From: Promethearchaeota archaeon
Lineage (GTDB): Archaea > Asgardarchaeota > Lokiarchaeia > Sigyniarchaeales > Sigyniarchaeaceae
Direction: 5' to 3'
DNA length: 13,213 bases
Assembly: GCA_016932935.1 (NCBI GenBank)
Contig: JAFGBX010000051.1
Coordinates: forward strand, 1 to 13,213
The position numbers and the translations under genes are program-made. The notes below the pieces were generated by a model. The model was not told the DNA's origin and searched no databases. It saw only the letters and a program-made list of their open reading frames with translations. Every line of letters begins with the position of its first letter. The first letter of the stretch is position 1. Shown in pieces: positions 351 to 13,213 of the stretch.

Positions 351-1658
351 TCAGCACAAGGGGAGGATCTCTGAGCCGCGGCGCACGACCTTCACGCTCG
401 TGCTGCGCCCCGGCGCGACTTGACGCCCCCCAGCGACGAGGTCATGGACGAGTGCTTGGAAGTCGCGTGATCGGACGATGTCGAAGCCGTGCTTGCCGAA
501 GGTCTTCTTGTCGAGGGTGTCCGAGACGACATGCACGTGGCAATGCGCCATCACCTCGCCGACGTGTGCCAAATGCGACGCTTCCAGCAAATGATTGGGT
601 GGTATCGCGCCGCCCTTTACCATCTCGTCGATCTCTGCGGGCGGGTGGTACCCGTGCTCGAGCAAGACGTCGGCATGGGCGGGAGACCAGCCCTCCGTGC
701 ACGGCGCGAGCAAGACGAGGTGCCCGCCGGAGCGAACGAAACTCTTGCAGTTGCATGCGGCCTTCGCGCACAGCCACCAGTCGGCATGCTCGGGAACAGC
801 GTCGGCGACGACGACGTCCGCGGGGTTGCCGACCGGCACGCCGTAGACCTCCCTCGCGACCGCGGCGCCCTGGTATTGGGCGGCGACCGGGTCGCCGAGG
901 CACAACGAGACGACGCGGGAGGCCCCGTCGAGCACCGTGTTCACCAGGAGGTCGATCGGCCGGTGCGCGCCGACCTCGTTGATCGCGTCGCGCACCGGGT
1001 TCCTCGGCACGCCGAGGATCCGCTCGGACGGGTAGGCGGCGCTGGCGTAGTGGATGCGGTTCATCGTGTCCTGGCACGTGAGGCCGGGCAGGAGGATCTT
1101 GTACCCGCCCGAGTACCCGCACACGCGGTGCGGCACGATGTTGCCCAGCCCGACGAGGAACGTGCCCGGCTCGCACGCGACGCGGGCGAGCTTGAGGTCG
1201 TACCCGCCCCGCGCCTTCCCGAAGTTGGCGAGGCCAGACTCGTCCGACCACTCGTGGTCGAGGACGGGCACCTCGTCCACGACGGCCGACCCGAACTTCT
1301 CCCGCTTCTCCTCGCGGGTCATGCGGCGGTGGCTCCCGCCTGCGACGACGATCGAGACGGGCTTTCCAACGGACTTCGCAGCGCGGATGACCGGGGGGAG
1401 CAGCGTTTTGACTGGCGTGACGCGCGTCTGGTCGTCGGACGCGACGAGGATCCTGGCCGACTTCTCCAGCCTTCCACGCTGCTTGGCGAGCTCAGAGGCG
1501 ATGAGCCTCGTGATGGCTGCCACCCCGTCGTGCTTGGCCTTCTCCGGGACTGGCGAGGCGGTGGCGGGAGATACCTCCTCGGCGTGCACGCCCGCGGGGA
1601 GGTCGAGCGGCAATTCCCCGATGCCCCACTTGATGTCGTAATGGTCGTGAGATGCCAT
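351..1658 (-). CDS. larA: LarA-family protein (lactate racemase N-terminal domain / DUF2088; nickel-pincer-cofactor-dependent 2-hydroxyacid racemase/epimerase family).
   Basis: The ORF 351..1808 carries the LarA hallmark motifs: SDDQTRVTP (cf. the DHTRP loop), VCGYSGGYK (the Lys that tethers the NPN cofactor, ~residue 187 counted from MASHD) and conserved His residues near 110 and ~200. The length from MASHDHYDIKWG is 435 aa, typical of LarA. Start set at ATG 1658 (MASHD...). The 50 upstream codons to 1808 are Arg-rich and unlikely to be coding. Confidence 0.8.
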   Translation of the reverse strand: MASHDHYDIKWGIGELPLDLPAGVHAEEVSPATASPVPEKAKHDGVAAITRLIASELAKQRGRLEKSARILVASDDQTRVTPVKTLLPPVIRAAKSVGKPVSIVVAGGSHRRMTREEKREKFGSAVVDEVPVLDHEWSDESGLANFGKARGGYDLKLARVACEPGTFLVGLGNIVPHRVCGYSGGYKILLPGLTCQDTMNRIHYASAAYPSERILGVPRNPVRDAINEVGAHRPIDLLVNTVLDGASRVVSLCLGDPVAAQYQGAAVAREVYGVPVGNPADVVVADAVPEHADWWLCAKAACNCKSFVRSGGHLVLLAPCTEGWSPAHADVLLEHGYHPPAEIDEMVKGGAIPPNHLLEASHLAHVGEVMAHCHVHVVSDTLDKKTFGKHGFDIVRSRDFQALVHDLVAGGRQVAPGRSTSVKVVRRGSEILPLC

Positions 1659-1691
1659 GACCAATTCACGGGGCCGCCGGGAGAAAAGGTT

Positions 1692-1731
1692 GGCCGACCG
1701 TGCGCGCAACCGTGCACGAGTACGGTTGGCC
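1692..1731 (-). other. Imperfect stem-loop (10-bp stem, one G-U/mismatch, ~20-nt loop) in the putative 5' leader of the LarA-like gene.
   Basis: ggccgaccgt (1692-1701) pairs with acggttggcc (1722-1731). It lies 34-73 nt upstream of the LarA ATG at 1658, between the gene and the AT-rich promoter island at 1860-2050. Confidence 0.3.
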
Positions 1732-1951
1732 ATGAGACACCGCTCATTAACCCCGCGCCTCGTGCTAACAAGCCATTTGAATGCCCAATGATTCATATGC
1801 ATCCACATTCACGGGAAGATTGGCGTAGCGGCGTTTCGGTCGTTCTCCAACTGAAGATACTTGGTCGCGTCGGATCTCTTTTATTTGGTTTAACAGATTT
1901 TTGATCAAAAGCAATGTGCGTGGATTGTACCAGGCGCACGACGTTTCCACC

Positions 1952-2005: not shown

Positions 2006-2015
2006 ACGTTTAAAC
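2006..2015 (+). promoter_or_regulatory. TATA-box-like element (cgTTTAAAcc) with a purine-rich BRE-like flank, ~40 nt upstream of the Tes-like gene 1 ATG.
   Basis: gtttaaac sits at 2008-2015, in the AT-rich island, 38-45 nt 5' of ATG 2053. A second TTTATCTC box at 1991-1998 is an alternative. If archaeal, a TSS ~25 nt downstream would leave a very short leader. Confidence 0.3.
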
Positions 2016-2052: not shown

Positions 2053-3741
2053 ATGGCAATGAATCTTGAAGGTAAGAAGGTCTACAGGCGGACCAAGTCG
2101 GTCTGCCCAGAATGCTTGAAGCAGATCGACGCGAACCTCGTTCTCGACGATCTAGATGGGAATCCGATGGTTCTCATGAGGAAGAAATGCAGCGAGCACG
2201 GCTACTTCGAGGACATCATCAGCCGGAACCCGCCAGAATACGAGAGGAACCAGAAATACTACCACGACTACGTGACCATCGAGAACAAGGACAACGTGCA
2301 CGACACGGGGAAGGGTTGCCCGCACAACTGCGGTATGTGCGCCGAGCATAAATCATCACCATGCATCGTCTTGATCGACATCACGAACCGGTGCAACCTG
2401 GCGTGCCCGATCTGCTTCGCCAACGCGTCGGCGAAGGGCTACCTCGTTGAGCCGACCATGGAGGAACTGCGCATGATCTTGCAGCACTTCCGGGACATCA
2501 AGCCGATCCCGCCCGTCTTGTTGCAGATATCCGGCGGCGAGCCCACGGTTCGGGACGATCTCGTGGACTTCATCCGAATGGGCAAGGAGATGGGCTTCGT
2601 CCAGATCATGCTCACGACGAACGGCCTCAAGCTCGCGGCCCGCAACGGCCCCCAATACATCAAGGAGCTGCACGAGGCCGGTATGGGCGCTATTTACCTG
2701 AGCTTCGACTCTGCCGACGATCCCGAGGTGTACAAGAAGGTTCGCGGCGTCAATTTGCTCGCCCAGAAGAAGCGCGTGATCGAGAACTGCCGCAAGGCGG
2801 GTTACGTCGGCGTGACGCTCGTGCCGACGATCGCACGGGGCATGAACGACCACCAGGTAGGGCCGATCATGCAGTACGCGATGGACAACCACGACGTCGT
2901 CACCGGCGTCGTGTTCCAGCCCGTGGCTCTCTGCGGCCGCGTCGACAACGAGCAGATCCGCGAGCTCCGGTACACGACCAGCGACCTCACGCGGGAGCTG
3001 GCGCGCGTCACGAAGCGCCAGGACACATATATCTTCCCCATCCCCGCCATCTCGAACATGACCAAGCTCATGGGCTGGTACGACTTCGCGCCCCAGTTCT
3101 CGATGGCGTCGCACCCCGATTGCGGCTTCGCGACGATTATGATTCCCGACAAAGAGGGCCGCTGGCACGGCATCGAGGAATGGTTCGAAGCGGACGGTTT
3201 CATCAAGTGGACCGACCACGTCTGGGGGATGGTTGAGAAGGGCGAGTGGCCCAACATGACCGACAAGTTCATCGCACCGCTGGCGAAGCTGTTCGGGGAG
3301 CAAGTCGGGAACGTGATCAACCAGGCCTCGGACTTCGCGTACCGAAAGGCCATCAAGGCCTATTACATGGCCGGCGCCATGCGTTACATCAAGGGCTTCG
3401 ACGGGCCCGTCGAGGAGTTCATCCCCATGGTCTTGAACCCCAACATCACGACATCATCACAGTTCTTCGAGGCGGGCAAGTCCATGCTCGTGAGCTCGAT
3501 GCACTTCCAGGACGTCTACAACTTCGACATCGAGCGCGTCCAGCGCTGCCTCGTGCACTACGGCACGATCGATCCCGACCACCCGGGCAAGGTGCTTCAG
3601 GTGCCCTTCTGCGCGATGAACTCGATCCACCGGGAGGCCATCGAGACCAAGATCGCCAAGGCCAAGTACAAGGTCAACGCGACCGAGATCAACGCGAAGG
3701 CGCGAGAGTTCCTCGAGAAGGAAGTCGTCGGCACCCAGTAA
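2053..3741 (+). CDS. Radical SAM enzyme, tetraether lipid synthase (Tes / GDGT-MAS)-like, paralog 1 (562 aa).
   Basis: The canonical radical-SAM motif CNLACPIC (CX3CX2C) is followed by SGGEPT (a glycine-rich SAM-binding motif). A second upstream CX3CX2C (CPHNCGMC) and an N-terminal CPEC...CSEH rubredoxin/Zn-ribbon-like Cys/His cluster are present, plus a ~300 aa C-terminal domain. Size and multi-cluster layout match what I recall of the Tes/GDGT-MAS family, but the family assignment is made by eye only. High-GC codon usage. ~75% identical to the 5333..7027 protein. Confidence 0.8.
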   Translation: MAMNLEGKKVYRRTKSVCPECLKQIDANLVLDDLDGNPMVLMRKKCSEHGYFEDIISRNPPEYERNQKYYHDYVTIENKDNVHDTGKGCPHNCGMCAEHKSSPCIVLIDITNRCNLACPICFANASAKGYLVEPTMEELRMILQHFRDIKPIPPVLLQISGGEPTVRDDLVDFIRMGKEMGFVQIMLTTNGLKLAARNGPQYIKELHEAGMGAIYLSFDSADDPEVYKKVRGVNLLAQKKRVIENCRKAGYVGVTLVPTIARGMNDHQVGPIMQYAMDNHDVVTGVVFQPVALCGRVDNEQIRELRYTTSDLTRELARVTKRQDTYIFPIPAISNMTKLMGWYDFAPQFSMASHPDCGFATIMIPDKEGRWHGIEEWFEADGFIKWTDHVWGMVEKGEWPNMTDKFIAPLAKLFGEQVGNVINQASDFAYRKAIKAYYMAGAMRYIKGFDGPVEEFIPMVLNPNITTSSQFFEAGKSMLVSSMHFQDVYNFDIERVQRCLVHYGTIDPDHPGKVLQVPFCAMNSIHREAIETKIAKAKYKVNATEINAKAREFLEKEVVGTQ

Positions 3742-4244
3742 TCCCTTCCATTCATTTTTCCAGCTATAACCTGAAGTCTTTCACTTGTACTAGGCGATTT
3801 CCTATGTTCTAGCAGATCTAGCAGAATCTGCATGATTGATAGATTACGCCCTTCACGGGCGTAATCATCGCCCGTGAAGAAGATGATTACGAGGGGCGGG
3901 CCGACCGATGCCTCGAGCACGGCGAGCAATTTGACAAACCACCAGTTCTTCCCGTCGAAGAAGACGTCACGTATGAAGAGAAGCAAGAAGATGTTGGCCA
4001 CGGCGTTCATCGTGAACGAGGCGTACGATGAGAGGGCCACGTAATCGAACACCTCGCGCCAGTCTGGATTAAGGCCGTTGACCGTGAAGACGACGTAGTC
4101 GATGGCAGCGTCGAGGACGAGGAACCCGACCATATCCCGCAGATGTCGGACGGTTCGTGCCTTTCCCACCTCATACTTCATCGCGAGCAAGATGAAGACG
4201 ACCAGGGCGATGGCCGAAGCGAGGATGGCGCCCGCGTAGGCCAT
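3597..4244 (-). CDS. Small polytopic membrane protein (about 4 TM helices). The 3' extent is uncertain.
   Basis: The ORF starts at ATG 4244, directly after an in-frame TAG and downstream of an AT-rich island. The first ~135 aa (MAYAGAILASAIALVVFILLA...VGPPLVIIFFTGDDYAREG) form 4 clear hydrophobic helices with GC-rich codons. The remaining ~80 codons run through the AT-rich hairpin region and overlap the Tes1 3' end by 145 nt, so they may be a non-coding read-through of the ORF. Confidence 0.45.
   Translation of the reverse strand: MAYAGAILASAIALVVFILLAMKYEVGKARTVRHLRDMVGFLVLDAAIDYVVFTVNGLNPDWREVFDYVALSSYASFTMNAVANIFLLLFIRDVFFDGKNWWFVKLLAVLEASVGPPLVIIFFTGDDYAREGRNLSIMQILLDLLEHRKSPSTSERLQVIAGKMNGRDYWVPTTSFSRNSRAFALISVALTLYLALAILVSMASRWIEFIAQKGT
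3843..3867. terminator. Perfect 10-bp-stem hairpin (GATTACGCCC-ttcac-GGGCGTAATC) between convergent genes, with a partial repeat of one arm downstream (cgcccgtgaag at 3869-3879) that allows alternative pairing.
   Basis: The palindrome can be read directly in the sequence. It is flanked by tagcagatctagcagaatctgca (direct/inverted repeats at 3811-3833). It lies 100 nt past the Tes1 stop. Confidence 0.4.
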
Positions 4245-4469
4245 CTACTGGTAATCGTAGGTGAAGAACTGGTGCATAGGCTCATGATCCTCTTTCTCTG
4301 AGCCTCCTTAAAGTCATTCCTTATCCTCGTTAGGTGCTTTAAGAGGATCATATTATTTCACATGCTTTGGATTGTGCTATCCCCCAGCGATGACTATTTA
4401 TCCCCGCGGAGCATATCAAGCTCATCCGGTGCCGCCCAGGGAAAGGCGCGCGCCGGGGTGGGAAAAGCC

Positions 4470-4670
4470 ATGGGAAGCGACAAGCAAGCGGTAGCCGCGC
4501 CCCCCGGGCTCGGCCTGGAGGACGGCGTGGTCATGTTCACGCGCAAGCCTGCAAAGATGGGCGACGATTACATCTTCTGGATCCCGCGCGTTTACGTGCG
4601 GAATGGTCTCGTTGACACGTCGGTCGAGTACGAGATCTACTTGCGCAAGGTACCGGGGCGGAAGGACTGA
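4470..4670 (+). CDS. Small protein (66 aa), possibly an AbrB/MazE/SpoVT-like swapped-hairpin DNA-binding domain.
   Basis: ATG 4470 is preceded by GGGGTGGG with 7-nt spacing (SD-like), with an AT-rich TATA-like ACTATTTATCC at 4391-4400. The product MGSDKQAVAAPPGLGLEDGVVMFTRKPAKMGDDYIFWIPRVYVRNGLVDTSVEYEIYLRKVPGRKD fits the ..IP+.h.+.hGL..GD.VEh.h pattern of AbrB-type domains only loosely. The longer 4362 start would code through the AT-rich promoter island. Confidence 0.4.
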   Translation: MGSDKQAVAAPPGLGLEDGVVMFTRKPAKMGDDYIFWIPRVYVRNGLVDTSVEYEIYLRKVPGRKD

Positions 4671-4773
4671 TGCGAGGTGCTGGAGGTTAGCCGGTGGCGG
4701 AGGAAGGGAGGATGAGCGGGCCCGGCCGCCCGGCGCGCATATTTCGGGAAATCTTGGGAGAGAGGGAAGTTTT

Positions 4774-4816
4774 TGCGCCACGGCGCAGCGCGAAAAGAAG
4801 CGGCTTCGCGCGCCGG
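4774..4816. other. Pair of GC-rich hairpins (tgcgcc-ac-ggcgca; gcgcgaa-N10-ttcgcgc) in the ORF-free spacer.
   Basis: gcgcgaa (4788-4794) pairs with ttcgcgc (4805-4811). An adjacent smaller stem sits at 4774-4787. The pair lies ~105-145 nt past the stop of the 4470..4670 ORF. It could be a terminator or part of a structured RNA. Confidence 0.3.
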
Positions 4817-5332
4817 GTTTCGCGGCCCAGGCCCGCTCGCGGTTAATTCACTTCGGCATCGGCCGCACCCTCTTCATTTTCCTCTTACAAGCCATGCAGT
4901 ATCCGCCCTCGGCATCCATCCCTGTCATGGTGGCTCCCGTGTTGCACCAGGGGCGCGTCACCACAACTTTGTGCTTCTCCGTCCGCATGGTTGCGATCGC
5001 GACAATCTGCCTATGGTACGCTCTATGGTCGACGCCGTGGTATTTATCATTGCTCTGTCCACGTGCCCCCGGCGCGTGTCGTCGAACGGGAGTTCACGGA
5101 TGAATCCTGGTGTCTGGTGAGCTCGGAAGAATTACACTGGATGGGTCGTTAAGCGAACAAAAGGCTGTTGAAGCGCGTCCATTTCGGTCTTGCTGATAGA
5201 ATGATGATGATGCCGAACAATACGATGCGGTTTATTGCCTGGGGCTAAAACCAACCGAACGGAAGCGGGATGAGCGAAAGAATTCGACACTGGAAGAGAA
5301 ATGAGGTGAGAAATACATCCAAGGGCGGTGCA

Positions 5333-7027
5333 TCAATTCCCGACTTCCTTCTCGAGGAACTCCTTGGCCTTGGCAGTGATCTCGTTCGCGTCGAGCTTGA
5401 CGTTCTGAACAGCGATCCTCTTCTCGACGTTCTCGCGGTGGATGCTGTTGAAGGCGCAGAATGGCACCTGCAGCACGTCGCCGGGGCGGTCGGGATCCAT
5501 CATACCATAATGGACGAGGCAGCGCTGGACGCGCTCGATGTCGAAGTTATAGACGTCCTGGAAGTGCATACTCGAGATCAAGAGGTTGTTGCCGTGTTCA
5601 AAGAAGCTCGCTGCCGTTTCGAGCCCTGGGCTGAGCATGATGGGGATGAAGTCGGAAACCGGCCCGCTGATGCCCTTCAAGTAACGCATGGCACCGCCCA
5701 TGAAGTAGGCCTTGATCGCCTTGCGGTACGCGAAGTCCGAGGCCTGGTTGATCACGTTCCCGACCTTTTCCCCGAATAACTTCGCCAGCGGCCCGATCAA
5801 CTTCTCGGAGAAAGTGGGCCACTGATTCTTGCATACGAAATCGTCCCAAACCTTGTCTCCCCACTTCAATAAGCCGTCCACATCGAACCAGTCCTCCACG
5901 CGCATCCATTTACCCGTCTTGGTATCGATTGACATGACCGTGGCAAACCCGCAGTCGGGGTGCGAGGCCATAGTGAACTGGGACGAGTAATCGTACCAGG
6001 CGATCAGCTTCGTGAGGTTGCTCGTGGCGGGGATCGGGTAGATGTAATTGTTCGTGATGCCCACCGCCTCGCCGATGGCTTTGGAGAGGTCGCTGGTCGT
6101 GTACCGGAGCTCGCGGATCTGCTCGTTGTCGATGCGGCCGCAGAGCGACACGGGCTGGAACACGACGCCCGAGACCACGTCACGGTTCGCCTTCGCGAAC
6201 TCCATGATCGGCCCGACCTGGTGGTCGCTCACGCCCTTGGCGATCGTGGGGACGAGCATGACGCCCTTGAAACCGGCTTTGCGGCAGTTCTCGATCACGC
6301 GCTTCTTCTGGGGGAGCAAGTTGACGCCCCTCGCCTTCCTATACACCTCGGGATCGTCGGCAGAGTCGAAGCTCAGGTAAATAGCGTTGAGGCCGGCAGC
6401 CATCAGATCCTTTATGTATTGCGGGCCGTTGCGGGCCGCGAGCTTGAGGCCGTTCGTCGTGAGCATGATCTCGACGAAGCCCAGCTCCTTGCCCATGCGG
6501 ACGATCTCGACGAAATCGTCGCGCACGGTGGGCTCGCCGCCGGAGAGCTGGAGTAACACGGGAGGGATCGGCTTGATGCTCCGGAAGTGGGTCATGATCG
6601 TGCGCAGCTCGTCCAGCGTCGGTTCCACGACGTATCCCTTGGCGGAAGCGTTGGCGAAGCAGATCGGGCACGCCAGGTTGCACCGGTTCGTGACGTCGAT
6701 CAAGGCGATGCAGGGCGACGACTTGTGCGCGTCGCACATACCGCACTCGTGGGGGCAGTTTTTCCCTGAGCGCTCCCCGTGCTTCTTGTTCTCGATCGTG
6801 CAATAATCATGGTAATATTGCTGGTTGCGCTCGTATTCTTGCGGGTTCCGGCTGATGATGTCCTCGAAGTACCCGTGCTCGCTGCACTTCTTCCTCATGA
6901 GCACGGCGTCCTTCCCCTCGAGCTCGTCGAGCACGAGGTTCGCGTCGATCTGCTTCAAGCACTCGGGGCAAACGGACTTGGTACGCCGGTACAGTTTCTT
7001 GCCTTCCAGGTTGGGTTCCATGGTCAT
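5333..7027 (-). CDS. Radical SAM enzyme, tetraether lipid synthase (Tes / GDGT-MAS)-like, paralog 2. 564 aa from ATG 7027, or 562 aa from ATG 7021.
   Basis: Same architecture as paralog 1: CPEC...CSEH, CPHECGMC, CNLACPIC and SGGEPT motifs. It is alignable to paralog 1 over the full length without gaps of note, at roughly 75% identity. ATG 7021 (MEPNLEGKK) has a GGAAGG/AAGGA SD-like motif 6-7 nt upstream, so the true start may be 7021. Confidence 0.8.
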   Translation of the reverse strand: MTMEPNLEGKKLYRRTKSVCPECLKQIDANLVLDELEGKDAVLMRKKCSEHGYFEDIISRNPQEYERNQQYYHDYCTIENKKHGERSGKNCPHECGMCDAHKSSPCIALIDVTNRCNLACPICFANASAKGYVVEPTLDELRTIMTHFRSIKPIPPVLLQLSGGEPTVRDDFVEIVRMGKELGFVEIMLTTNGLKLAARNGPQYIKDLMAAGLNAIYLSFDSADDPEVYRKARGVNLLPQKKRVIENCRKAGFKGVMLVPTIAKGVSDHQVGPIMEFAKANRDVVSGVVFQPVSLCGRIDNEQIRELRYTTSDLSKAIGEAVGITNNYIYPIPATSNLTKLIAWYDYSSQFTMASHPDCGFATVMSIDTKTGKWMRVEDWFDVDGLLKWGDKVWDDFVCKNQWPTFSEKLIGPLAKLFGEKVGNVINQASDFAYRKAIKAYFMGGAMRYLKGISGPVSDFIPIMLSPGLETAASFFEHGNNLLISSMHFQDVYNFDIERVQRCLVHYGMMDPDRPGDVLQVPFCAFNSIHRENVEKRIAVQNVKLDANEITAKAKEFLEKEVGN

Positions 7028-7268
7028 CCTTCCATGTTGGAGGTGGCGGGTTAATAGGAAAGCGCCGGTCTCTTAATAAACCGCCGCCAGATCTTCCAAT
7101 GTTTATATATAGATGGATAGTGAGATTTTAAGCCTTCCTCTCCGACGGCTCTCGTGCATCCAACACCGCAGCATCCCCGTGTCCAAACGAACCGTGTCGT
7201 TCACCAGTCGGGTTTCGGGATTCCCGCACGCAAGAACCTTTTAGTGATCCCGTGACCGCTATGGGGTC

Positions 7269-7913
7269 ATGGTGAACATTGTTTTGTTCGGCCCGCCAGG
7301 CGCAGGGAAGGGGACACTGGCCGAGATCATCAAGCGATACAGCAAGATCGTCCACATAAGCACCGGAGACCTCTTCAGGGAGAACGTGAAGAGCAGTACG
7401 CCGATCGGCAAGGAAGCCAAGAAGTACATGGACGAGGGGAAGCTAGTGCCGGATTCCGTCGTCATCGGCATGGTGAAGGAGCGGCTGGCCAGGGACGACG
7501 TCAAGAAGGACGGCTTCATGCTCGACGGCTTCCCGCGCACGCTGGATCAAGCAAAGGCGCTCGACGGGGTCACCAGGCTCGACACGGTCGCCGTGCTCGA
7601 CATCGACAAGAAGTCGCTGCGGGAGCGGATCCTCGGCAGGTACAACTGCCCGAAATGCAACCGCATCTACAACATCTTCAACGACAGGCTTAAGCCGAAG
7701 ATGGAAGGTCAGTGCGACGAGTGCAAGGTCGCGCTCACGCACCGTGCTGATGACAACGAAGAAACGTTCGAGAAGCGGTGGAAGGCCTACGAGGAACAGT
7801 CCACCGACGCGCTGGAGTATTACGAGGAGCGAGCGGGGCTCGTCAAGCACGTCGACAGCAACAAGATACTGGCCCTCACGGAGAAGGACGTCAAGGGCAT
7901 GTTTGGCCTATAG
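7269..7913 (+). CDS. adk: Adenylate kinase, long bacterial-type with a Cys4 zinc-binding LID domain.
   Basis: The P-loop GPPGAGKG is present, along with LDGFPRT (the AMP-binding region) and the LID motif CPKC...CDEC. The length is 214 aa. A GTG at 7272 would give the canonical MNIVLFGPPGAGKG N-terminus, so the start is 7269 or 7272. Confidence 0.9.
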   Translation: MVNIVLFGPPGAGKGTLAEIIKRYSKIVHISTGDLFRENVKSSTPIGKEAKKYMDEGKLVPDSVVIGMVKERLARDDVKKDGFMLDGFPRTLDQAKALDGVTRLDTVAVLDIDKKSLRERILGRYNCPKCNRIYNIFNDRLKPKMEGQCDECKVALTHRADDNEETFEKRWKAYEEQSTDALEYYEERAGLVKHVDSNKILALTEKDVKGMFGL

Positions 7914-9892: not shown

Positions 9893-10543
9893 TCACACCC
9901 TGCCCGGCAAGAAATAGCGTGTCCCGTCCTTGTAAGACACGTCCTTGCGGAGCAGCCCGGTTCGGAGCAGGTGACTGAGTACCCTCGCTAGGCGGACATC
10001 TGCCCAGTGCAGGGTTATCTTCAGCTCGGCCTCGCTCATGAACTCCTTGCCCTTGAATAGCCCCAGCACGGTTGCCCCATCCATGTACGCCTCGGATTGT
10101 TTGATCGCGAGGTAATGCTCCCCGTCCTGGTGGATCTCGTCGAAGGGCTTGTCCTTGATCTTGCAAGCCTTCCGGATGTGGTCTATCGAAACGAGGGCTT
10201 TGAGCGAGCTGCTCCCGAAGTCCTTGAGTATCGCAGGTAAGGCCAGGATGCCCCCCGTCGAGCCGATGGCTGACTCGAGGATAGCCTTGATTCTCAAAGC
10301 GAGGAGATCGATGCGGGGCTCCACGGTTCCTGGCGCGAGGATCTCGGAATACGAGTCCTTGGGTATGACCTTCACGTAGTTGTCGGTCGATGAAATGACG
10401 ATCGCCCTGTCTCCCTTGTTCAGGGAGAACTCGGAATCGGCCCTGACGAGATCCAACGTGCCAGCCTCGTGGCGAACCATGCCGTTCCCCCGAGCCTGGT
10501 TCCACAAGTCCACGGTCACGACAGCACCGACGGGCACCTTCAT
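9893..10543 (-). CDS. NfeD-like OB-fold domain protein (no TM segment) fused to C-terminal winged-helix (wHTH, TrmB/MarR-like) domain(s).
   Basis: ATG 10543 has a GAGGTG SD-like motif 11 nt upstream and lies 53 nt after the flotillin stop. The N-terminal ~65 aa (GAVVTVDL...VRHEAGTLDLVRADSEFSLNKGDRAIVISSTDNYVKVIP) matches the NfeD C-terminal beta-barrel pattern (V.V.GE.W.A.S-..I..GE.V.V....L.V). The C-terminal MSEAELKITLHWADVRLARVLSHLLRTGLLRKDVSYKDGTRYFLPG is a classic wHTH with wing. A second WH-like segment (ILALPAILKDFGSSSLKALVSID...GEHYLAIK) precedes it. Confidence 0.6.
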   Translation of the reverse strand: MKVPVGAVVTVDLWNQARGNGMVRHEAGTLDLVRADSEFSLNKGDRAIVISSTDNYVKVIPKDSYSEILAPGTVEPRIDLLALRIKAILESAIGSTGGILALPAILKDFGSSSLKALVSIDHIRKACKIKDKPFDEIHQDGEHYLAIKQSEAYMDGATVLGLFKGKEFMSEAELKITLHWADVRLARVLSHLLRTGLLRKDVSYKDGTRYFLPGRV

Positions 10544-10596
10544 CGATCGCACACCTCGAAAAAGAGAAAGAGGATGACGCAAAAGAAGCTATCGCA

Positions 10597-11880
10597 TCAC
10601 CTGCCCGACGCCGCGGCCTGGGCGGTCTTCGTGGCAAGCCCGACCTTGGCGATAAGCTCGGAAAGGCCGCCCTGGAGCAGCCCGGACTGAAGCAGCGCAT
10701 CGATCTTCGGCAAGAAGTTACCGAGGAAGTTGCCGTCCGAGTTCCCATTACCACCCGAGGGCAGATAGATGATCTTGTTGTTCGGCCCGACTGCCTTTGC
10801 TATCTGCTCCGCGGAATCGACTTGTGCCTTGGCGAGGAGTTCGAGGATCTTCATCTGCGCCGTCGTCTCGTTGTATTGCTTCATCGCCTCGGCCTTCTGC
10901 CGGATGGCATCAGCCTCAGCGATGCCCCTGAGGCGGATGCCCTCGGCCTCCGCCTCGAGCTTGAGCTTGACAGCATTACTGTCCGCCTGGGCCTTGATCG
11001 ACACTGCCTCCGAATCCGCCTTGGCGAGCATTATCTTCTTGTTGCGCTCGATCTCGGCCATCTTCTCCGCGTTCTGCTGTTCGACCTTCAAGCGCTTCTC
11101 CTCGAGCACGAGCTTCTGCTCCGACGCGAGCTTCTCACGCTCGTAGTGGGCGACCTCCTCCTCCTTCTTCATCTGCTCGCTCTTAACCTTGGCGTCCTTC
11201 TCCTTCTCGACCTCGATCTTGACCGCCTCGGAGTCGTGGGTGGCCTCGGAGATACGCGCGTTGCGTCGGAGCTCGGCGATCTTGACCTTCTCGAGCGAAG
11301 CTATGACGTCGGATCCCTCGATGTCCCGGATATTCTTGATGTCGAAAATCACGGGCGAGAGGCCGAGCTTGGACAGCGCGTCTTGCACCATCGCATAGAT
11401 GGCTTTTTCGATCTCCTCCCGGTTCTTCATGATCTCGAGGATGTTGCGCTCCATCGCCACGGAGCGTGCCGCCGACATAACCGTGTCCTCGACGACCTTC
11501 GAGATCGTGCTGTGGTCGATTGTCGTGAGGGTCGCTGCTGACTTTGGCGGGTCGGTCACCTGCACCTTGACCGATATCTCGACACCGAAGGGCAGCTTGT
11601 CCACGTCGTGCAGCTTGATGAGCTGGGGCTCGATGTCAAGCACGTGTTTCGGGATGATGGTTCGCCCGTGGAAGACCCGCAGGAACACGTACCTGCCCGA
11701 GCCATCATACTGAGTGATCCTTTTACCATGGCTGACGACGTGCACCTCGTTAAAAGGCACGACGACCAGCGACTTAAAATAAATGCCGACGACGATCATG
11801 GCGGCGATCCCGCCGATGACACATGCAAGGATCCCGCCGACGAGGTTGAAGTCCACCTGGAGATGCTGTGCTTGGATCAT
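10597..11880 (-). CDS. floT: Flotillin (SPFH/band-7 family, FloT-like) membrane scaffold protein.
   Basis: An N-terminal TM helix (ILACVIGGIAAMIVVGIYF) is followed by an SPFH domain and a long Glu/Ala/Lys-rich coiled-coil with EA repeats (AEAEGIRLRGIAEADAIRQKAEAMK) typical of flotillins. A GAGGA SD-like motif lies 6 nt upstream of ATG 11880. Confidence 0.85.
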   Translation of the reverse strand: MIQAQHLQVDFNLVGGILACVIGGIAAMIVVGIYFKSLVVVPFNEVHVVSHGKRITQYDGSGRYVFLRVFHGRTIIPKHVLDIEPQLIKLHDVDKLPFGVEISVKVQVTDPPKSAATLTTIDHSTISKVVEDTVMSAARSVAMERNILEIMKNREEIEKAIYAMVQDALSKLGLSPVIFDIKNIRDIEGSDVIASLEKVKIAELRRNARISEATHDSEAVKIEVEKEKDAKVKSEQMKKEEEVAHYEREKLASEQKLVLEEKRLKVEQQNAEKMAEIERNKKIMLAKADSEAVSIKAQADSNAVKLKLEAEAEGIRLRGIAEADAIRQKAEAMKQYNETTAQMKILELLAKAQVDSAEQIAKAVGPNNKIIYLPSGGNGNSDGNFLGNFLPKIDALLQSGLLQGGLSELIAKVGLATKTAQAAASGR

Positions 11881-12111: not shown

Positions 12112-13213
12112 ATGAGCGACGAGAAGAAGCCTTCGACGATGTTTGAACTAATGCAGATGTCGCAAAAGAAGCAAGAATCCGAGAAAGGAAAGAAAAAAAA
12201 GGACAAGGACAAGGACAAGGAGAAGGACGTCCAAGAGAGCCAGGAGTTGGACGAGAAGCTCTTCGGCAAGGCCTCGGTCGCGGCACCCGGTGGTGCAGCT
12301 GCCCCGGCGGGGCCGAGCTCGAGAGACTTGTTCTCGCTGCTCGAGGAGACGGACAAGGAGGCAAAAGCGGCCCTCAAAGCACAGCTCCTCGACGCGATCG
12401 AGGCCATGGCACAGGCCTATGCTGAGATACCGATCAACCGGATCGCGAAGCGCGTCAGGGAGGAGGCCGAGGAGGCCGTCCTCGCAGTGCTCGAGGAGAT
12501 GATCATCGGCGGCCTCATCAAGGCGCGGCTCGCCCCCGACCGGATCCTCCCCGCGGATGGCTCCAGCAAGATCCAGGTCGACCGTGGCGCTGCGGGGGTA
12601 CAACCCAAGTCACAGCCCGCTCCCTCGCCCCCGGTCGCGACGAGCAAGCCCGAGCCGCCCTCGGCAGCATCGGGCGCGCCCGCCGAGCCGGGGCCTGCCA
12701 AAGAAGCCAAGCCACGCCCGTCCATGGAGGACGTGCCACCAGCCCCTTCCATCCCTCCGGTTCCCGCGCCGGCGGCACCAAGGCCGGCGCCACCACCCGT
12801 TCCATCGATCCCAAGGATCGAAGCACCCCCGGCGATATCCATCGGCGTTGGGGCGCCGGCGCCAAGCCCACCGCCAGAGCCGGCGGTCGAACCGCCAGCG
12901 CCGGCAGCTCCCGCAGTCGAGGAAATACCCGATTTTCCCAATCCCGATTCGATCGAGGCCCCGCCCGGTGCGATCCCGGTTCCCGCTCCCGCGCCGGCCC
13001 CGGCACCCGTGGCGTCCCAACCAGCCCCGCCCGCGTCGAGGCCCCTTGGGGGGCTCAAGCCCATGGGGAAGATGCCGATCCCCAGCCCGGCCCGGGCCGG
13101 GATGGTGAAGCCCGCTCCGCCGGTTTCCCCGGCGCCCGTCGCGCCGGTGGTGCCGTCCGCGCCGGTGGTGCCGTCCGCGCCGGTGGTGCCGTCCGCGCCG
13201 GTGGTGCCGTCCG
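12112..13213 (+). CDS. Hypothetical protein, 3'-truncated by the window edge. It has an acidic/Lys-rich N-terminus, a PCI-like winged-helix domain and a long Pro/Ala-rich low-complexity tail with APVVPS tandem repeats.
   Basis: Manual translation from ATG 12112 has no stop to the window end (367 codons): MSDEKKPSTMFELMQMSQKKQESEKGKKKKDKDKDKEK...IPINRIAKRVREEAEEAVLAVLEEMIIGGLIKARLAPDRILPADG...(P/A-rich)...APVVPSAPVVPSAPVVPSAPVVPS. The six-frame track omits it because there is no stop inside the window. The opposite-strand ORFs here are G/A/R-rich shadows. Confidence 0.6.
   Translation, partial: MSDEKKPSTMFELMQMSQKKQESEKGKKKKDKDKDKEKDVQESQELDEKLFGKASVAAPGGAAAPAGPSSRDLFSLLEETDKEAKAALKAQLLDAIEAMAQAYAEIPINRIAKRVREEAEEAVLAVLEEMIIGGLIKARLAPDRILPADGSSKIQVDRGAAGVQPKSQPAPSPPVATSKPEPPSAASGAPAEPGPAKEAKPRPSMEDVPPAPSIPPVPAPAAPRPAPPPVPSIPRIEAPPAISIGVGAPAPSPPPEPAVEPPAPAAPAVEEIPDFPNPDSIEAPPGAIPVPAPAPAPAPVASQPAPPASRPLGGLKPMGKMPIPSPARAGMVKPAPPVSPAPVAPVVPSAPVVPSAPVVPSAPVVPS
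12201..12228 (+). repeat. Hexanucleotide tandem repeat (GGACAA)x3 plus degenerate copies, encoding DKDKDKEKD. It is immediately preceded by an A8 homopolymer (12193-12200).
   Basis: Read directly: ggacaaggacaaggacaaggagaaggac. It is in-frame inside the 12112 CDS. Confidence 0.8.
13141..13213 (+). repeat. Perfect 18-bp tandem repeat gcgccggtggtgccgtcc, at least 4 copies, continuing off the window edge. It encodes (APVVPS)n.
   Basis: Four identical 18-mers run from 13141 to 13212 in the frame of the 12112 CDS. Being cut by the window edge, the copy number is unknown. Confidence 0.9.

Follow-up and report, generated by a model that had tools for sequence, protein, structure and literature searches.

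The 13,213-bp contig JAFGBX010000051.1, one entire contig of a metagenome-assembled genome (MAG) with the NCBI label Candidatus Lokiarchaeota and analyzed here in full (hereafter, the window), encodes two full-length paralogs of an enzyme of the radical S-adenosylmethionine (SAM) type from the family of tetraether lipid synthases (Tes), which also includes the synthase (GDGT-MAS) of glycerol dialkyl glycerol tetraether (GDGT) and macrocyclic archaeol. Paralog A occupies positions 2053..3741 on the forward strand (562 aa; the NCBI record MBN2150295.1 starts two codons later and comprises 560 aa), and paralog B, identical to MBN2150297.1, positions 5333..7027 on the reverse strand (564 aa). The two genes are convergent, with 1,591 bp separating their stop codons, and the encoded proteins align in BLASTP over 560 aa with 73% identity, 85% positives and two gaps. 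The initial annotation of this locus had described exactly these coordinates and the convergent arrangement with a spacing of 1.6 kb, had estimated the identity at about 75%, and had noted a shared layout of motifs (CPEC...CSEH, CPHxCGMC, CNLACPIC and SGGEPT), all of which are indeed present in both A and B. It had further proposed that the pair may belong to the Tes/GDGT-MAS family, that the two copies may in that case have diverged in function, and that the short genes located between them could encode accessory or regulatory partners. As shown below, these proposals fare quite differently.

Both A and B are radical-SAM enzymes of the Tes/GDGT-MAS family. The Pfam Radical_SAM domain is detected in A and B with E-values of 3.8e-23 and 7.2e-24, respectively, and the N-terminal zinc ribbon PF23545 with E-values of 3.4e-15 and 2.6e-15. 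Among the NCBIfam models, the top one for both proteins is that of Tes (NF045702), with 433.8 bits for A and 449.5 bits for B. The closest solved relative is GDGT-MAS of Methanocaldococcus jannaschii (7TOL; E-values of 5e-102 for A and 5.9e-106 for B), which is also the only solved protein matched by either paralog beyond the radical-SAM core. The same relationship is apparent at the level of structure: the AlphaFold2 model of A (predicted local distance difference test score, pLDDT, of 80.5; predicted template modeling score, pTM, of 0.84; low confidence for residues 405–424) is aligned by Foldseek with 7TOL and 7TOM over 541–545 columns, with template modeling (TM) scores of 0.78 and 0.88 and an E-value of 1e-47, and the runner-up, MoaA, is matched with a TM score of 0.31 within the radical-SAM core only. 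In this comparison, B is represented through its 73% identity to A. The profile and structure comparisons that the initial annotation had suggested as a check thus agree with its family assignment.

This assignment is further strengthened by the conservation of the metal ligands. The GDGT-MAS of M. jannaschii (MJ0619) has four cofactor sites, namely, an iron site of the rubredoxin type (CX2C...CX2H), an N-terminal cluster coordinated by three cysteines and a histidine, the CX3CX2C radical-SAM cluster, and a C-terminal cluster that involves a labile methionine (PMC9433317). The ligand positions matching these sites are invariant across A, B and 48 aligned homologs. In A, the rubredoxin-like site consists of C18, C21, C46 and H49, with equivalents in B, and corresponds to C9X2C12X20C33X2H36 of MJ0619; the N-terminal [4Fe-4S] site consists of C89, C93, C96 and H99 within CPHNCGMCAEH (CPHECGMCDAH in B), the counterpart of C73, C77, C80 and a histidine in MJ0619; and the radical-SAM cluster is bound by C114-X3-C118-X2-C121 (C116, C120 and C123 in B), followed in both proteins by the SAM-binding SGGEPT motif. 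The C-terminal site of A comprises C357, M483, C499 and C520, again with equivalents in B. Here, M483 lies in the motif SSMHFQD, which aligns to ISCMHFMD of 7TOL, the location of the labile Met439 of MJ0619; the three cysteines named are the probable ligands of this cluster, as judged from the alignment and their conservation. Both paralogs therefore share with GDGT-MAS (7TOL/7TOM; Lloyd et al., 2022, PMC9433317) the four-domain architecture and all four cofactor sites. They differ from it in that the identity is only about 33%, that they come from an Asgard archaeon rather than a methanogen and have a predicted activity, and that they are about 55 aa longer, mostly through some 26 extra residues in the 387–468 region.

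An alternative is that A and B perform another radical-SAM function, that of a TrsS-type (seleno)protein, of the pterin methylase HMPTM, of a cofactor maturase, or of an enzyme that modifies ribosomally synthesized peptides (RiPP). TrsS (NF045646) is the second NCBIfam model for both proteins (335.9 bits for A and 326.9 bits for B), the Pfam N-terminal domain bears the HMPTM name, and the database records of some relatives read 7,8-dihydro-6-hydroxymethylpterin dimethyltransferase. However, the TrsS scores are about 100 bits lower than the Tes scores and far below the TrsS cutoff of 490 bits, the best TrsS match stretch covers only the N-terminal ~300 residues, and the full-length match is restricted to GDGT-MAS. 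The HMPTM name in Pfam and some of the database names trace to an old pterin-methylase annotation of MJ0619 (PMC9433317); the study that showed MJ0619 itself to be GDGT-MAS failed to corroborate that annotation (PMC9433317). Neither the Pfam nor the NCBIfam scan revealed any SPASM or RiPP context in the window. Altogether, a different radical-SAM function appears very unlikely. The tetraether desaturase Ted, considered as well for the second copy, was discarded: it is a B12-binding radical-SAM enzyme akin to the GDGT methylases and not a Tes homolog.

The two paralogs are the products of an old duplication. In a neighbor-joining tree with 200 bootstrap replicates and bacterial Tes homologs as the outgroup, A, B and their relatives with more than 66% identity form a single clade (bootstrap 100%). 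Its sister group, supported at 100% as well, is a second Asgard clade of proteins of 566–576 aa from MAGs labeled Promethearchaeota, Lokiarchaeota and Hermodarchaeota, which have the same domain set and share 47–50% identity with A and B. The closest homologs of A and B come from Sigynarchaeota, and the more distant ones are labeled Promethearchaeota or Hodarchaeota. Within the A/B clade, window A belongs to one subclade (clade A, bootstrap 76%) and window B to another (clade B, 96%), next to a third group, clade C (99%), so that the phylogeny that the initial annotation had called for does separate the two copies. Window B and the partial B copy of Sigynarchaeum springense (locus L001) share 92% identity, and A-type and B-type copies are found on the same contig in no fewer than three other assemblies (L001, L030 and L035); in addition, the Hodarchaeota-labeled contig L032 carries two Tes copies in tandem, 370 bp apart.

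For A vs. B, the number of nonsynonymous substitutions per site (dN) amounts to 0.197 in the window itself and to 0.18–0.205 in all other comparisons of A with B, both within and across genomes. Given that the two types form separate clades and that dN between them is the same within and across genomes, the duplication took place before at least three Sigynarchaeota genomes diverged from one another. The equality of dN also rules out gene conversion between the inverted copies, inasmuch as there is no trace of homogenization. Between orthologs, dN is 0.086–0.133 for A and 0.048–0.100 for B, with ratios of nonsynonymous to synonymous substitutions (dN/dS) of 0.078 and 0.046, respectively; both copies are under strong purifying selection. 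The low dS between A and B within the window (0.58) is explained by the extreme GC content at third codon positions that the two genes share (0.87–0.89, vs. 0.75–0.79 in the nearest relatives), a shift that distorts any dating based on dS.

These observations also bear on the possibility, which the initial annotation itself had raised as a potential refutation, that the second copy is an artefact of assembly or binning, i.e., a collapsed or chimeric duplication. Apart from the MAG origin of the contig, nothing speaks for such an artefact. In contrast, A differs from B at 27% of amino-acid and 22% of nucleotide positions, each copy is closer to its orthologs in other assemblies than to its partner in the window, and the same pairing is found on contigs of four other assemblies. 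We therefore consider the chance of an artefact to be negligible and regard A and B as true diverged paralogs.

Each copy also appears to be transcribed on its own. The GC content drops upstream of both genes, and these AT-richer stretches, which the initial annotation had pointed out as a promoter island for each copy, contain hexamers that resemble archaeal TATA boxes. Read from the sequence, the putative promoter of A includes TTTAAA at 2009..2014 on the forward strand, 44 nt upstream of the ATG, and that of B includes TATATATAAA at 7102..7111 on the reverse strand, 80–84 nt upstream of the ATG, in the intergenic region between B and a divergent adenylate kinase gene; the role suggested for both sites follows from the general layout of archaeal promoters. 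Separate promoters are plausible and, because the genes are convergent, each would need its own in any case.

Taken together, the homology, the full-length fold predicted for A, the conserved metal ligands, the purifying selection and the age of the duplication, along with the variable gene content between the copies (see below), lead us to propose that A and B are most probably anciently duplicated, independently transcribed genes of the Tes/GDGT-MAS family, which encode isoenzymes with the same coupling activity and are not part of a dedicated cassette. By homology to GDGT-MAS and Tes, from which the catalytic activity and the products of A and B are predicted, each protein would carry three [4Fe-4S] clusters in addition to a rubredoxin-like iron. 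Cleavage of SAM by the radical-SAM cluster would yield a 5'-deoxyadenosyl radical, which would take a hydrogen from the terminal methyl group on a saturated phytanyl chain in an archaeal diether phospholipid. The end of this chain might then stay bound to a sulfide in the C-terminal cluster, as a carbon-sulfur intermediate (cf. PMC9433317), until the termini of two chains are linked by a second abstraction and carbon-carbon coupling. When it takes place between two lipids, the reaction would produce glycerol trialkyl glycerol tetraether (GTGT), followed by GDGT, and when it takes place within one lipid, macrocyclic archaeol (cf. PMC8941075). Both copies would catalyze the same tail-to-tail coupling and would be kept as isoenzymes that differ in regulation or in subtle preferences for substrates or products. 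Isoenzymes with the same chemistry are, in our best guess, the default reading of this pair.

Several points weigh against this interpretation. Both A and B score slightly below the curated equivalog cutoff of NF045702 (450 bits), so that the same function is not certified under the NCBI rule, and the NCBI records give the two proteins no name beyond "radical SAM protein". This cutoff is an annotation threshold and not a biochemical feature, and the scores of other Asgard homologs straddle it as well, with 424.9–457.1 bits for three members of the clade with ~48% identity and 477.7 bits for L006, a third Asgard type. Furthermore, of the two Tes homologs of Methanosarcina acetivorans, MA_1486 yields GDGT, GTGT and macrocyclic archaeol, and MA_1114 only traces of macrocyclic archaeol (PMC8941075); since MA_1114 made no GDGT, homology alone is no guarantee that both copies synthesize tetraethers. 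If the same genome additionally encodes a copy from the clade with ~48% identity, the role of main GDGT synthase might fall to neither A nor B. Finally, the tree is a neighbor-joining tree only, and the order of the groups inside the A/B clade is not settled by it.

The M. acetivorans pair is, at the same time, a precedent for the opposite view, under which A and B are sub-functionalized in product or substrate: one might be a GDGT synthase and the other one form mainly macrocyclic archaeol or GTGT or, as a variant of the same reading, one copy might accept diethers that are differently saturated, hydroxylated or head-grouped. Several features of the pair are consistent with such specialization. 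Strong purifying selection has preserved both copies from a time before the divergence of at least three genomes, the ortholog dN (0.086–0.095 for A vs. 0.048–0.100 for B) points to a roughly twofold higher rate of evolution in A, and 31 positions are nearly fixed between clades A and B. Moreover, the divergence between the copies is unevenly distributed, with dN of 0.27–0.34 in alignment codons ~300–420 vs. 0.12–0.20 in codons 0–300, which cover the N-terminal part and the radical-SAM core; the former stretch follows this core, holds the C357 ligand, and leads into the part of the protein with the C-terminal cluster and the lipid-binding region. However, the 31 nearly fixed differences are mostly conservative, and only four differences are strictly fixed, all of them conservative as well (L/F, M/K, I/L and M/L), so that we discarded strict signature residues as evidence of specialization. 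The metal ligands are identical in A and B, and variability across the family as a whole also peaks in the 300–420 stretch, with residues 387–468 failing to align to 7TOL by sequence. Besides, relatives manage with one full-length and one truncated copy (PPR_0005) or with a single copy at the locus (L042). We therefore treat a division of labor between A and B as a possible but distinctly less likely outcome than the retention of isoenzymes. A more specific scenario is that Tes was duplicated early in Sigynarchaeia and then specialized, for example, into a GDGT-forming enzyme and an enzyme biased toward macrocyclic archaeol, GTGT or modified diethers, with the determinants located in the ~300–420 stretch. 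This scenario is speculative and, in our view, somewhat less probable still; if it is true, the A/B pair would be a natural tool for mapping the determinants of intermolecular vs. intramolecular coupling.

The genomic context of the two Tes genes is partially conserved. Upstream of A, on the opposite strand, lies a LarA-like gene of the nickel-pincer racemase family (351..1808, reverse strand; Pfam Lar_N, E-value 7.7e-33), the true start of which is probably near 1661 and for which the NCBIfam malate and lactate racemase models score below their cutoffs. In L035, L042 and L043, too, the A-type copy has a Lar_N gene upstream of it, and from residue 49 onward the window protein is 67% identical to that of L035. 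On the other side, B forms a divergent pair with the adenylate kinase gene (ADK; 7269..7913, forward strand; Pfam ADK, E-value 8.8e-48), which is a conserved neighbor found in the same divergent arrangement in L030 and L035. The window and L035, a 152-kb Sigynarchaeota-type contig, share the order LarA-like gene, A, variable segment, ADK/B, o227, o329 and EAP30-like gene, where o227 and o329 are two conserved genes without an assigned function. The ADK-B unit of the window (5333..7913) is inverted relative to L035 (16366..19008) and L030 (9847..12127), with the flanking synteny kept, and in L001 B is likewise inverted relative to these two loci. The convergent orientation of A and B in the window is thus the result of a local inversion of the ADK-B unit.

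In contrast to these flanks, the content of the segment between the Tes copies differs in every related locus that we compared. It consists of the remnant of a membrane-protein gene and a 66-aa gene in the window, a single 1002-aa SIR2/TPR protein in L001, genes for a NosD-like protein, creatininase, a glycyl-radical enzyme, a GTPase and others in L030, and genes for an alcohol dehydrogenase and two proteins without an assigned function in L035; the tandem copies of L032 have nothing in between. The DNA between A and B is therefore a variable insertion zone. At the nucleotide level, the similarity of this segment of the window to the other loci is confined to the coding core of the 66-aa gene, and in the remaining ~660 bp up to the end of B (4671..5332) we found no convincing open reading frame (ORF), tRNA, Rfam match or DNA similarity to the related loci compared. 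More distant relatives have departed further from the paired arrangement: in L043 the second Tes copy seems to be on a different contig and is no nearer than 7 kb, and in L042 there is no second copy within 10 kb of the gene. On the 3.7-Mb scaffold PPR_0005, a Tes copy of the third clade (L004, 7629..11143) is 5'-truncated, lacking the first ~186 codons, adjoins a 569-aa transposase-like ORF, and is located far from the full-length copy (L005), i.e., it is a disrupted paralog. These observations fit an ancestral tandem duplication that was later split by insertions and an inversion, and not a functional cassette. As an aside, the SIR2-like/TPR protein of L001 (2283..5291, reverse strand; PADLOC TPR, E-value 4e-21, and SIR2, E-value 7e-7) is possibly a defense gene.

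The initial annotation had reported two ORFs between A and B, a protein with four transmembrane segments and a small AbrB-like protein, and had suggested that they serve the Tes pair as accessory and regulatory components. Both open frames exist (3597..4244, reverse strand, and 4362..4670, forward strand); however, the first is the remnant of a pseudogene, and only 66 codons of the second constitute a gene. The first frame, a mechanical ORF of 215 aa, runs through AT-rich intergenic DNA into the antisense strand of the 3' end of A, and this explains why the only matches to its residues 163–215 are to the antisense strand at the 3' ends of Tes genes elsewhere. An exhaustive HMMER search retrieved 12 homologs of 210–267 aa, nearly all of which match only residues 1 to ~143 of the query. 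When the closest homolog (P0238, 266 aa) was compared with the window by tblastn, its residues 1–137 aligned to positions 4277..3867 with 68% identity, and its C-terminal half (~130 residues) was found nowhere in the window. The alignment passes through an in-frame TAG codon at 4245–4247, where both aligned homologs (P0238 and P0239) carry a tryptophan. Thus, as judged by tblastn and HMMER, the segment 3867..4277 (reverse strand) is what is left of a gene for a multi-pass membrane protein of ~250–266 aa, and NCBI lists no protein accession between A and the 66-aa gene. An intact homolog in L034 resides in an unrelated neighborhood, next to a transposase. The membrane ORF is therefore a decayed gene that is not functionally tied to Tes, and with the nonsense codon, the missing C-terminal half and the lack of a protein record the proposed accessory role of the membrane protein falls.

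The exact break point of this pseudogene coincides with two overlapping perfect hairpins (3842..3879). One of them, with an 11-bp stem formed by CTTCACGGGCG and CGCCCGTGAAG, spans 3851..3879 and is located 110 nt 3' of the A stop codon, and the alternative, with the stem GATTACGCCC/GGGCGTAATC, spans 3842..3866. The predicted RNA fold of the region 3742..3900 has a free energy of -51.8 kcal/mol (z = -3.8).

The second intervening gene (4470..4670, forward strand; MBN2150296.1, JW839_02505) comprises only the last 66 codons of its open frame and belongs to a seemingly Sigynarchaeota-restricted, multi-copy family of small proteins. Among its ~93 homologs, the named members all come from Sigynarchaeota or Lokiarchaeota MAGs, with several copies per genome; they range in size from 57 to 177 aa and share the near-invariant core RKPAKMGxDYIFWIPRVYxxNGLVDP. 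Further copies are present in L033 (5001–5180), L037 (373–636), L038 (4001–4192), L039 and L040, and members of the family precede a choline-transporter-like gene, immediately precede rpoA' in three assemblies, and lie beside a B12-binding protein. The 66-aa protein shows no match to any Pfam family at E-values up to 10, to NCBIfam or to PADLOC. Its AlphaFold2 monomer model has a pLDDT of 71.5, and the top Foldseek matches among PDB structures, the RIFT-fold dimers 8jvq and 8jvr and the pSSVi protein C56 (7xi6), are non-significant (E-values of 6.9–9.9, probability 0.04–0.06). The AbrB identity suggested by the initial annotation was accordingly dropped, there being no match to AbrB, MazE or SpoVT profiles and no significant fold match; the protein could still be a small dimer of the cradle-loop type. 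Nor is the suggested link to Tes as a regulator upheld, with the gene being one of ~93 members of a multi-copy family, other copies of which lie next to unrelated genes. A role of the two intervening ORFs in defense or in phage biology was also considered and rejected, with no PADLOC match to either.

A dedicated dual-Tes cassette, in which a membrane protein and an AbrB-like DNA-binding protein would act as accessory or regulatory partners of the two enzymes, accordingly has little to draw on beyond the physical position of both ORFs between A and B and the weak resemblance of the 66-aa model to cradle-loop or RIFT-type small dimers and pSSVi C56. The membrane gene is dead, neither intervening gene is found between or beside the Tes copies in any related locus examined, the small gene belongs to a family whose members are scattered beside unrelated genes, and even at E-values up to 10 there is no Pfam AbrB match, with the fold matches only at E-values of about 7–10. 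Such a cassette, as envisaged in the initial annotation, is thus highly improbable.

Some features of the window outside the Tes locus may be mentioned. No non-coding RNA or tRNA was detected anywhere in the window. In the region 9893..11880 (reverse strand), a gene with a weak match to EAP30/Vps36-like proteins of the ESCRT-II type (E-value 2e-5, under the Pfam cutoff) adjoins a gene for an SPFH/flotillin-like protein; it occupies the same relative position as the EAP30 gene in L035. This match fits the Asgard origin of the contig, and the flotillin and adenylate kinase neighbors are not informative as to lineage. At the end of the contig, an ORF on the forward strand (12112..13213) that runs off the sequence encodes a charged N-terminus, a possible winged-helix-like stretch and a long Pro/Ala-rich tail. 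This tail is encoded by 18-nt tandem repeats (13131..13202), which are probably responsible for the assembly break.

Among the characterized systems, A and B are comparable to MA_1486 and MA_1114 of M. acetivorans and to Maeo_0574, which belong to the same family (NF045702 is the best model for A and B). Two Tes homologs per genome were reported for 22 of the 322 methanogen genomes, and Tes is widespread in Asgard archaea (Zeng et al., 2022, PMC8941075). The duplication described here is independent of that in M. acetivorans, being contained within an Asgard-specific clade (bootstrap 100%), and A and B are both much more similar to each other (73%) than the M. acetivorans homologs and still located in one neighborhood. 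Bacterial Tes homologs (from Planctomycetota, Actinomycetota, Latescibacterota and others), which served as the outgroup of our tree, were retrieved with the same peptide patterns as the archaeal ones and are homologous to A and B over the full length, with 32–35% identity; they have been proposed to make branched GDGTs, although their function in bacteria is unproven (PMC11868695). In a literature search of limited coverage, we found no description of the Sigynarchaeota-type Tes clade or of conserved paired copies, and none that connects Sigynarchaeota with tetraethers.

The locus thus adds members to a known enzyme family and does not represent a new kind of system, the supposed accessory genes being incidental. 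For annotation, the assignment is of value given that the database names of A and B do not go beyond the radical-SAM superfamily, and the pair itself, with the two proteins 73% identical, is convenient for testing product specificity. Tes/GDGT-MAS enzymes make membrane-spanning tetraethers from archaeal bilayer lipids, so that whether Asgard archaea encode them, and in how many copies, is relevant to the membranes of the archaeal relatives of eukaryotes, and one Asgard lineage keeps two intact, selected Tes copies in a conserved neighborhood.

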